This document shows positions 33,110 to 35,175 of a DNA stretch of 64,000 nucleotides, one piece after another. Each line of letters begins with the position of its first letter. The first letter of the stretch is position 1. The DNA is from Promethearchaeota archaeon (GTDB taxonomy: Archaea; Asgardarchaeota; Lokiarchaeia; Sigyniarchaeales; SOKP01): positions 1 to 64,000 of the forward strand of contig JBHLNS010000007.1 of the NCBI GenBank assembly GCA_048941285.1, given 5' to 3'. Both the position numbers and the translations under genes were made by a program. Under the pieces are notes generated by a model. The model was not told the origin of the DNA and searched no databases. It saw nothing but the letters and a program-made list of their open reading frames with translations.

Positions 33110-35175
33110 TTAAATATCTAATGTTTTAACTTCATCAAAATTACTAATAATAAATTTTTTACGAGCCTTTACTTCTTTACCCATTAATTTCGTGAAGATT
33201 AAATCATTTTCAATATAATCTTCATATGTTACTTTTTTTAGTTTTCGTGTTTCTCTCTTCATTGTAGTTTCATATAACTCATCAGAATTCATCTCACCGA
33301 GTCCTTTGTATCTTTGAATTTTAATCGTTTCTATATTCTTGAGTTTATATTTATGCTTAATCGTTTGAAGATAATTCTCCTTTTCTTTATCTGAATACAC
33401 ATAATCTTTTGAATTTTTATAAGATACTTTATATAAGGGGGGTACTGCGATGTATAAATGTCCTTCATCTATTAAAGGTCTTAAATATCGAAAAAAGAAA
33501 GTAAGTAATAATGTTTCAATATGAAACCCATCAACGTCAGCATCACACATGATAATAACTTTATGATACCTGAGTTTACTTAAATCAAAAGTCTCTTCTG
33601 CATCATCGCCGTTTTCATCAGACTCACCATTAGAACCATTTAACATACTTTCCTCTTGAATTCCAACCCCTAAGGCTTTGATAATAGACTGAATTTCATT
33701 ATTTTGTAATACTTTATCAATCCTAGCCTTTTCTACATTCAATATTTTTCCTCGAATAGGAAGTATTGCTTGATATGTTCTGTCTCTCCCTTGTTTCGCA
33801 GGTCCACCTGCAGAATCACCTTCTACAATAAATAGTTCTACTTTTTCTGGATCATTTGATGAACAATCAGCTAATTTTCCAGGCATTCTTGCACTATCTA
33901 ATGCTGATTTCCTACGAATTAAAGCTCTCGCCTTTTGAGCTGCTTCTCTAGCTAATTTAGCGTTAATTGTTTTTAATACAATTTTTTTTGCTGTATCTGG
34001 ATGCTCTTCGAAATATTGAGTTAATCTATCAGTAACGATTTGACTTACTATCTGTCTAAGTTCAGGATTTCCTAGTTTAATTTTAGTTTGACTTTCAAAC
34101 TGAGGATCTGGAAGTTTAACTGAAAGTACGGCTGATAATCCTTCTCTTGTGTCACTTCCACTTAATACATGTTCTCTATATTTCTTTTCCATATAGCTCT
34201 CAATGTAGGAATTAAATACTCGAGTTAACGCGGATTTAAATCCAGTCAGGTGCACACCACCTTCAATTGTATTAATTGTATTTGCATAAGTTAAAATATT
34301 AGCTTGATATCCTTGATTATATTGCATTCCTAACTCAACGTAAAAAATAGAGCCGTCTTCATCTTCAATAGAATCATTTATATGAATTATATCGTTATGA
34401 AGAGGTTGTTTATCCTTGTTTAGATAAGAAATGAATTCTTTAAGGCCTCCTTCATAATGGAATTCTTGTTTTTCATCATCAAATTTATTATTAATTTCAA
34501 ATCTAGTATGAGGAGTGAGAAATGCTAGTTCTCGCATTCTATTACTTATAGTATGAGCATTGAAAATTTGTCCATTGGGTTCAAATTCAAAAATCTCACT
34601 ATCAGGAAAAAACCTTATTTTAGTATAAGTTTCGTCTCCATTGATAGTTGTTATTTCTGGTTCAGAGACTTTTTTACCTTTAGAAAATTTCTGCTTGTAG
34701 CAGTAACCATCTCGACAAACCTCTACATTCATCCATTCTGTTAATGCATTGACAACTGATAATCCAACACCATGTAATCCTCCTGAAATCTTATAGCTTT
34801 TACTATCAAATTTACCTCCTGAATGCAAGTATTCCATTATCACTTCCAAAGCAGGTTTGTTAAATTCTGGATGATTATCAATGGGAATTCCTCTCCCGTT
34901 ATCATGAACCTGAACTGAATTGTCTTTATATAGTGTTACTCTTATTTCATCGGCATACCCACCCATTGCTTCGTCAACAGAATTATCTAAAACCTCAAAA
35001 ATGAGATGATGAAGACCATGTTTACCTTGATCTCCAATATACATTGCGGGCCTACGTCTTTAGCGACTCAGCGCGAATCGCGCAGATTCTTCATGATCTA
35101 TAGAAGTGAGTTTACGCCTTCAAGGCCCTTCAGAACTTTAATATCCTCTGCATCATAAACATCTTTATCAGGCAT
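33110..35175 (-). CDS. gyrB: DNA gyrase subunit B; join(35175..35113, 35059..33110), 670 aa after removing a 53-nt insert
   Basis: Exon 1 [21 protein letters not shown] + exon 2 RRRPAMYIG...[54 protein letters not shown]. Confidence 0.93.
35060..35112 (-). other. Putative 53-nt BHB-type mRNA intron in gyrB
   Basis: Carries an in-frame TAG and shifts the frame. Central helix GGCG/CGCU, bulges UA^A and AA^A, intron helix ACUCA/UGAGU; the cuts rejoin GTA|AGA in frame. Confidence 0.8.

Follow-up and report, generated by a model that had tools for sequence, protein, structure and literature searches.

We analysed a stretch of 64,000 nt (referred to below as the window), positions 1-64,000 of the forward strand of contig JBHLNS010000007.1 in GenBank assembly GCA_048941285.1, which belongs to a Promethearchaeota archaeon of the Lokiarchaeia whose draft genome (G000) consists of 101 contigs and is 94% complete with 3.4% contamination. 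The subject is the gyrB gene on the minus strand of this window. Its coding region is interrupted, between the N-terminal arm of GyrB and the RKRPxMYIG motif, by an insert of 53 nt whose predicted form is that of an intron with a bulge-helix-bulge (BHB), the motif recognized by the archaeal tRNA-splicing endonuclease, EndA. The gyrase genes and the insert are arranged as follows.

35113..35175, minus strand: gyrB exon 1, the ATG (35175-35173) and 20 further codons for the GyrB N-terminal arm, ending AAG GGC CTT GAA GGC GTA
35060..35112, minus strand: putative BHB intron of 53 nt, identified from its fold, its conservation and a covariance model
33110..35059, minus strand: gyrB exon 2, from AGA CGT AGG CCC GCA ATG TAT ATT GGA (RRRPAMYIG) to the stop codon, with the domains HATPase_c, DNA_gyraseB, Toprim and GyrB_C
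30625..33063, minus strand: gyrA, intact and directly downstream of gyrB (DNA_topoisoIV, 527 bits; DNA_gyraseA_C, 240 bits)

Read without processing, the frame that begins at the ATG at 35175 runs into a TAG (35100-35098) after 25 amino acids (open reading frame, ORF, 35098..35175), and the frame of exon 2 is closed inside the insert by a TAA at 35062-35060. The long unspliced ORF (33110..35044, 644 amino acids) has only one possible start, the ATG at 35044, 15 nt past the insert. This ORF contains all four Pfam domains and scores 859 bits against NF004189 (cut-off 740, profile positions 30-641), and since without exon 1 it starts at profile positions 21-30 of the gyrB models, the N-terminal arm is absent from it; against TIGR01059 it falls below the cut-off (830.6 vs 882.4). 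A GyrB that starts at 35044 would be defective, given what is known of the N-terminal arm in E. coli. Removal of the insert gives the reading ...KGLEGV|RRRPAMYIG, and because of the flanking A's the junction can be shifted one base in either direction with an identical product. The 21 residues of exon 1 were also compared to PDB, where all eight matches were GyrB N-termini (chain residues 2-21), at E values of 0.26-1.4 that are weak because the query is very short. The minus-strand layout, the insert at 35112-35060 and the TAG after 25 amino acids lie exactly where the original prediction, made from the sequence and its ORFs, had placed them, and the canonical GyrB start that it expected from the excision, ...GLEGV|RRRPAMYIG, is the one found in uninterrupted orthologs. 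A second, intact gyrB was also sought, and in this 94%-complete genome the gene is present as a single copy.

The region 35040-35135 was folded by unconstrained minimum free energy (MFE) prediction, and six sequences were folded together with RNAalifold without any given structure. Both agree on a central helix of 4 bp, a 3-nt 5' bulge and an intron helix of 5 bp, so designated in the following list of predicted elements.

35115..35118, minus strand: central helix, 5' strand, GGCG at the end of exon 1 (MFE fold and RNAalifold; 97.9% paired in 12 sequences)
35062..35065, minus strand: central helix, 3' strand, CGCU at the end of the intron (MFE fold, RNAalifold and pair counts)
35112..35114, minus strand: 5' bulge, UAA, with the predicted cut at 35113/35112 (MFE fold)
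35059..35061, minus strand: 3' bulge, AAA, with the predicted cut at 35060/35059, in the window's copy within an AA/AAAGA interior loop
35107..35111, minus strand: intron helix h', 5' strand, ACUCA, pairing with 35066-35070 (96.7% paired in 12 sequences)
35066..35070, minus strand: intron helix h', 3' strand, UGAGU (MFE fold, RNAalifold and pair counts)
35071..35083, minus strand: intron hairpin, GCGCG-AUU-CGCGC (93.3% paired in 12 sequences; missing from the 33-nt versions described below)
35121..35128, minus strand: outer exon-exon helix, 5' strand, GGGCCUUG, pairing with 35048-35056 (MFE fold)
35048..35056, minus strand: outer exon-exon helix, 3' strand, CG-U-AGGCCC (MFE fold)

Of the fold that had originally been proposed, the GGCG/CGCU helix, the UAA bulge and the ACUCA/UGAGU helix were all recovered, but the AAA on the 3' side is not directly closed. 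A BHB is expected to have a flanking helix of at least two pairs, and the intron helix h' provides five. As modelled, the window's copy is a relaxed BHB of HBh'-like form, and the copy in a related genome (G014) has a fully canonical outer helix and takes the strict hBHBh' form.

A first draw of relatives comprised 30 gyrB loci, 19 from the same genus and 11 from other families. The 53-nt insert was present at the same codon in six of the 19, and the remaining 13 loci of the genus, together with all 11 from other families, read uninterrupted as ...GLEGVRKRPAMYIG, which is the very junction predicted by the BHB cut rule. A covariance model (R1) built from the six inserts found exactly one copy in the genome itself (82.3 bits), and among 54 genomes of the genus it detected 12 with a single copy each. 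Two further matches in the genome (contigs C87 and C11, E values of 0.78 and 1.8) were taken as chance. When R1 was applied to a class-wide sample, copies were found in 14 of 151 genomes, namely G000, nine of 49 others in its genus (g1) and four of 40 in genus g14, and in none of the 61 genomes sampled from 27 other genera. Altogether 16 genomes, from two genera of the family, carry the insert, in every case at the same gyrB codon. Its length is 53 nt in 13 genomes, 52 nt in one (G061) and 33 nt in two genomes of the second genus (G153 and G091); the 33-nt versions lack the GC hairpin, keep the frame, contain in-frame stops and retain GGCG/CGCU.

When each bulge is cut after its second base, the product reads GV|R(R/K/L/V)RPAMY(I/V)G and the frame is restored in all 16 genomes, whatever the length of the insert, as expected from the EndA rule that the original prediction had applied to the window alone. 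The 3' bulge itself varies among the copies (AAA, AGC, AAC, AGA and AUC) and its position is fixed. The protein is thus recovered, for three insert lengths and five 3'-bulge sequences, by a cut rule that refers to structure only. The comparison of gyrB 5' ends across the Lokiarchaeia, which had been proposed as a check, also revealed compensatory changes among these same-site inserts. Four base pairs were changed on both sides among 12 sequences, including two in the intron helix (CG to UA in four sequences and UA to CG in one) and, in the hairpin, one GC to AU double change. The covariation score was 0.207, compared to 0.169 +/- 0.013 in shuffled alignments, and none of 500 shuffles reached the observed value; sliding the pairing partner by one to three columns reduced the paired fraction from 84% to 25-40% in the same 12 sequences.

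The short first exon is under constraint as well. The start codon and the frame of exon 1 were kept in 16 of 16 copies, and pN/pS over its last 15 codons was 0.096 (120 pairs of the 16 sequences), a value that indicates purifying selection. Since ATG and frame are kept everywhere and pN/pS is this low, exon 1 is translated as protein, and to judge by its residues it makes sense only as the arm of GyrB. Frameshifting was considered as a way of joining the two exons and ruled out: the frame of exon 2 is closed by a stop codon lying exactly at the 3' splice site in seven of the 12 copies first read, so that a shift of frame cannot join them.

The genome encodes the enzymes that such an intron would require. 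There are two EndA paralogs of approximately 200 amino acids each (PF01974, 104 and 69 bits), both above the TIGR00324 cut-off, and one RtcB (PF01139, 568 bits). One EndA paralog is closest to the solved tRNA-splicing endonuclease chains 3p1z_B, 3ajv_B, 2cv8_A and 2zyz_B, which we take to be crenarchaeal enzymes, and the other has a faint match to the beta-subunit model (E value of 1.2e-4, below the cut-off of that model). Asgard EndA has been described as an (alpha-beta)2 type enzyme with an L1 loop that is associated with the cleavage of relaxed motifs (Kaneta et al., PMC5829648), and such activity is what the relaxed copy in the window would need. ARAGORN called introns in 19 of the 31 tRNA genes it found in the genome, and many tRNA genes were probably missed by the program owing to non-canonical or multiple introns. 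One of the tRNA introns called, at 1953 nt, is implausible. With 19 of 31 tRNA genes interrupted, the EndA pathway is heavily used in this genome.

From these data we infer, with considerable confidence, that the 53 nt at 35112-35060 form a BHB intron in the mRNA of the sole gyrB gene, and the inference extends to the splicing itself, to EndA as the enzyme and to RtcB as the ligase. A precursor RNA would be transcribed from a start upstream of the ATG at 35175. The GGCG at the end of exon 1 would pair with the CGCU at the end of the intron and leave a 3-nt bulge at each splice site, the 5' bulge being backed by the intron helix ACUCA/UGAGU and the 3' bulge by the looser exon-exon helix. The two-subunit EndA would then cleave after the second base of each bulge and RtcB would ligate the exons, and the mature mRNA, with ...GAAGGCGUA joined to AGACGUAGG (GGCGUA|AGACGU), would encode full-length GyrB. 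That gyrase expression would depend on EndA and RtcB, as had been suggested, is supported by the covarying helices, the single gyrB and the presence of two EndA paralogs and an RtcB.

Several observations weigh against this interpretation. The window's copy departs from the strict hBHBh' form, its 3' bulge opening into the AA/AAAGA interior loop. In the 12 copies compared, pairing reaches only 51.7% at the five outer pairs that adjoin this bulge; cleavage on the 3' side therefore requires an EndA of relaxed specificity. In one copy (G004) the central helix contains a G.A mismatch and retains three of its four pairs. The fold energy of the single sequence is ordinary (z = -1.2, with 22 of 200 shuffles folding as well), so that the case rests on conservation in 16 genomes and on the pair counts. 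The 16 insert-bearing sequences are also related to one another, and for this reason the shuffle statistics overstate the support. Three RNA runs with small shares were identified, and contigs of X18, X19 and X20, along with those of the DNA run X1, were aligned to the window; RNA contigs (X18 and X19) fell only within the gene body at 33841-34880, with none across 34881-35208, which includes the junction, and their placement says nothing for or against splicing. Lastly, a whole-genome scan that required a 4-bp helix, bulges of 3 nt, an intron helix and two open frames joined by the cut rule returned 26,614 matches with a loose filter and 15 with a strict one, compared to 10-14 with six shifted decoy rules. 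Frame-joining, BHB-like geometry is thus common by chance in this AT-rich genome, and the motif alone proves nothing.

Because the decoy background is this high, the scan by itself cannot count introns, and we claim only those matches that are confirmed by profile coordinates and by uninterrupted orthologs. Most of the other matches, among those inspected by eye, look like adjacent genes or noise. By this standard at least five protein genes of the genome are interrupted, and the search for further frame-broken genes with BHB junctions, another of the checks first proposed, thereby added rpoA1, aEF-2, purA and a CoA-transferase gene to gyrB. For each of these four, uninterrupted orthologs match the predicted junction exactly. 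The inserts, all of them on other contigs, are located as follows.

C1:98368-98397 (L132:569-598), plus strand, outside the window: insert of 30 nt in rpoA1 (RNA polymerase A'), between GHFGH and IELARPV
C1:142733-142762 (L133:534-563), plus strand: in-frame insert of 30 nt containing a TAA, which separates QMTDSD from DEEQERGITI in aEF-2
C30:47957-47987 (L134:358-388), plus strand: insert of 31 nt in phase 1 in purA, splitting the Asp codon of GLSWG-D-EGKGK
C33:43254-43287 (L135:1355-1388), minus strand: insert of 34 nt in phase 1 in a family III CoA-transferase gene, at LDCS-Q-FISGP

The rpoA1 gene is single-copy in the genome, and the insert, 80 codons into it, contains one TAG and one TAA in frame; the flanking ORFs cover profile positions 4-77 and 78-877 and therefore abut at 77|78, the fold of the insert is strongly non-random (z = -4.8), and an uninterrupted CMGHFGHIELARPV was found in 27 of 30 loci from relatives. 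With two in-frame stops in its only copy of rpoA1, the organism must remove them, and EndA-type mRNA splicing is hard to avoid, a conclusion that raises our confidence in the gyrB case. Another genome (G021) has a canonical 85-nt BHB intron in rpoA1, 4 nt downstream of the G000 site, and from their positions the two may be separate insertions. For the rpoA1 insert of approximately 65 nt in a third genome (G024), the scan gave no frame-restoring BHB with 4/4 central pairs.

The aEF-2 insert, whose flanking ORFs cover profile positions 15-60 and 62-720 and so meet at 60|61-62, is present in eight of 24 loci of the genus, with changes in its 9-bp stem, and an uninterrupted QMTDSDDEEQERGITI was read in 21 of 30 loci, one locus being uninformative. 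A second, uninterrupted EF-2 paralog, with about 42% identity to the interrupted aEF-2, lies just past the end of the window (C66:76070-76972, plus strand), and this paralog is present in most genomes of the genus. The purA insert occurs in 10 of 22 loci of the genus, with compensatory changes in its intron helix, and GLSWGDEGKGK is uninterrupted in the other 12 and in eight of eight loci from other families. In the CoA-transferase gene, the insert at LDCS-Q-FISGP was found in four loci, and five orthologs, from five other species (among L235-L238 and L240), have a second insert about 25 codons further on, after ...VIKVE; both sites are uninterrupted in 11 loci. To judge from these sequences, one CoA-transferase gene can hold two such introns. 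We also noticed by eye that small hairpins in several inserts of different genes end in much the same pentaloop, GAUUC or AAUUC, with AGUUC and AAAUC as further forms, at 35071-35083 in the window, in L130 and L131, and in the CoA-transferase and purA inserts of L197-L217 and L235-L240. Such resemblance could reflect common descent or a shared protein-binding site.

The distribution of the gyrB insert does not follow the history of the gene. On a tree of the gyrB body with 35 rows (L043, for which only 190 amino acids could be used, was left out) the presence of the insert requires nine changes. Well-supported branches force at least six of these, and insert-bearing genes are no more clustered than randomly assigned labels (212 of 500 shuffles were as low). 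The window's gyrB is sister to an insert-free gene with which it shares 94% identity over the first 470 residues. In most insert-free gyrB genes the upstream region differs and the N-terminus is longer (MADKPSNQDS...), but two insert-free genes have the upstream type of the insert-bearing ones. The patchy pattern suggests repeated loss, or exchange of the 5' end by recombination, the latter being suggested because the presence of the insert departs from the gyrB-body tree in at least six changes. A blastn-short search with the 53-nt insert against its own genome returned only the insert itself, with a next best match of 15 nt (E value of 0.11); no second copy being there, the insert is not a repeated mobile sequence in this genome. 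Polymorphic and off the tree as it is, the insert looks like a passenger that is frequently gained, lost or exchanged and not like a regulatory device.

These results lead us to think it probable, with less assurance than for the gyrB intron itself, that the gyrB insert belongs to a whole population of endonuclease-type introns, short ones of 30-85 nt, in protein genes of this Asgard family, a population whose members are present or absent between sister species, occur at several lengths per site and depart from the trees of their host genes.

The alternative that best withstands these data, and still a very unlikely one, is that the insert is a tolerated lesion that is never spliced, so that translation of GyrB would begin at the internal ATG (35044) and omit the N-terminal arm, or the gene would be decaying into a pseudogene. 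It draws on the ATG 15 nt past the insert that opens a 644-amino-acid ORF with all GyrB domains, on RNA contigs that give no evidence of splicing and on the patchy presence of the insert in 12 of 54 genomes. However, the ATG, the frame and the GyrB-arm sequence of exon 1, kept in 16 of 16 copies at a pN/pS of 0.096, are unlike an untranslated remnant, and a lesion would not be expected to form a precise BHB with compensatory changes in which changes of length never break the cut rule. Moreover, gyrB is single-copy and the adjoining gyrA is intact, and the same explanation would have to hold for the sole rpoA1, with two in-frame stops in a 30-nt insert 80 codons into the gene.

It is very unlikely that the insert is removed from the RNA by means other than EndA, such as an element that cleaves or splices itself, or a different nuclease with its ligase. 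The room for this idea comes from the identification of EndA as the enzyme, which is indirect. On the other side, the window had no Rfam matches at gathering thresholds, and inserts of 33-53 nt are far below the size of group I and group II introns, which measure hundreds of nucleotides. The only features conserved across the gyrB, rpoA1, aEF-2, purA and CoA-transferase inserts are a 4-bp helix, two 3-nt bulges and a flanking helix, and these make up the EndA recognition motif.

Translational bypassing, in which the ribosome would hop over the 53 nt, is highly improbable. A known case is gene 60 of phage T4, which encodes a type II topoisomerase subunit and in which some 50 nt have no counterpart in the protein; bypassing there needs matched take-off and landing codons and a stop after the take-off codon. 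The gyrB insert is similar to it in being a gap of about 50 nt with a stem-loop inside, in a gene of the type II topoisomerase family, but it differs in having neither matched take-off and landing codons nor a stop directly after take-off. The take-off codon would be GUA or GUU and the triplet before the resumption of translation UAA, UAG, CAG, CAA or UAU, with no match in any of 12 copies; take-off is followed by AAC or UAC instead of a stop codon, and in the window the first stop follows four codons later. Bypassing would also have to accommodate the 33-nt and 52-nt inserts as well as those in rpoA1, aEF-2 and purA, in phase 0 and phase 1, which share only BHB geometry.

Finally, an artefact of assembly or binning, which a 101-contig draft with 3.4% contamination might invite, is scarcely credible, as 16 separate assemblies have the insert at the same codon, each with its own substitutions, and a DNA contig of run X1, a possible source sample, covers 34811-35259 and runs through the insert with 0 differences. 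The insert DNA is real, and of these two lines of evidence the 16 assemblies are the stronger argument.

With EndA-type splicing of gyrB as the preferred explanation, its closest known counterparts can be compared. Schwarz et al. (2020, PMC7714728) give, beyond tRNA and rRNA, only the crenarchaeal cbf5 intron and one in the 5' untranslated region (UTR) of HVO_1309 in Haloferax volcanii as known BHB introns, and Yokobori et al. (2009, PMC2738675) describe the cbf5 pre-mRNA intron of Desulfurococcales and Sulfolobales as lineage-specific, with inferred secondary losses, and cover both its gain and its loss. According to these papers, BHB introns inside archaeal coding regions were known from a single gene, crenarchaeal cbf5. 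The gyrB insert resembles the cbf5 intron (PMC2738675) in being short, inside a housekeeping coding region, BHB-like, a substrate (by prediction, in the case of gyrB) of EndA and in a host with a hetero-oligomeric EndA. It differs from it in gene and phylum, in that its presence varies between species of one genus and departs from the gene tree, and in that the genome has at least five protein genes so interrupted, gyrB among them; further, cbf5 splicing was demonstrated experimentally, whereas we deduce that of gyrB. The cbf5 gene of the present genome was examined and is uninterrupted. The HVO_1309 intron is, as the gyrB insert is predicted to be, an mRNA substrate for the archaeal splicing endonuclease, which was confirmed there in vivo and in vitro, but it lies in a 5' UTR and interrupts no reading frame, unlike the gyrB insert in its coding region (PMC7714728).

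A closer setting is provided by the non-canonical tRNA introns of Asgard archaea, which, in a preprint (bioRxiv 10.64898/2026.10.13.758758), are described as having the motif classes hBHBh', hBH and HBh', a two-paralog EndA and many independent gains. The group of organisms, the motif classes and the two-paralog EndA are the same here, and the 19 of 31 interrupted tRNA genes fit this picture; those introns differ from ours in lying in tRNA genes, and the main text of that preprint does not contain the word mRNA. The literature searched, with subscription journals and supplements outside its coverage, did not describe a BHB intron for gyrB or for any other protein-coding gene of Asgard archaea, in agreement with the original prediction, which knew of no such case.

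A parallel with HAC1 and XBP1 had also been drawn. In those genes a short mRNA intron is removed without the spliceosome by an endonuclease that cuts at structured sites, with ligation by an RtcB-type ligase in metazoa. The parallel is valid for the enzymology, that is, for non-spliceosomal removal of a short mRNA intron by an endonuclease and an RtcB-type ligase. It does not extend further, for HAC1 and XBP1 splicing is a regulated stress switch in which IRE1 cuts at paired stem-loops, unlike the gyrB case with its predicted tRNA endonuclease, its BHB and no sign of regulated splicing.

What is new is the gene and the phylum of this probable BHB intron, along with the similar ones in rpoA1, aEF-2, purA and the CoA-transferase gene of the same genome. 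If there is indeed a population of such introns, the closest archaeal relatives of eukaryotes would have routine, protein-dependent mRNA splicing with frequent gain, loss or lateral exchange of introns. If the splicing is confirmed, it would mean that essential genes of these genomes come out truncated or split from gene calling, giving a GyrB without its N-terminal arm, an RNA polymerase A' in two parts and an aEF-2 minus 70 residues, and that EndA and RtcB are essential, beyond tRNAs, for RNA polymerase, a translation factor and gyrase. Confirmation would also provide a natural system for the entry, persistence and exit of introns in protein genes, in which the alleles with and without the intron in sister species are directly comparable.

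Some features of the surroundings of gyrB deserve mention. A conserved ACCTTTAC(A/T)AAAA element is common to all insert-bearing gyrB genes, where it lies some 20-30 nt upstream of the ATG of exon 1 (35176-35210 in the window, and L005-L022 and L037-L049), and it may be the TATA-like promoter of a nearly leaderless mRNA. The gene upstream of gyrB in the window is the following.

35469-36332, minus strand: gene for a pterin-binding enzyme (Pterin_bind, 175 bits)

Many genomes of the genus, whether or not they carry the insert, have this gene as the conserved neighbour of gyrB, and in several insert-bearing genomes it is further from gyrB or was not found within 1.5 kb. With respect to the gyrase itself, the window's GyrB has its nearest relatives, with an identity of 82-88%, under the titles Promethearchaeota or Promethearchaeia, and the Asgard assignment therefore holds. 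The closest relatives outside the Asgard archaea in our genome collection, at approximately 48-51% identity, are from Bacteroidota (Flavobacteriales and Saprospiraceae), a similarity that may point to bacteria as the source of this archaeal gyrase.

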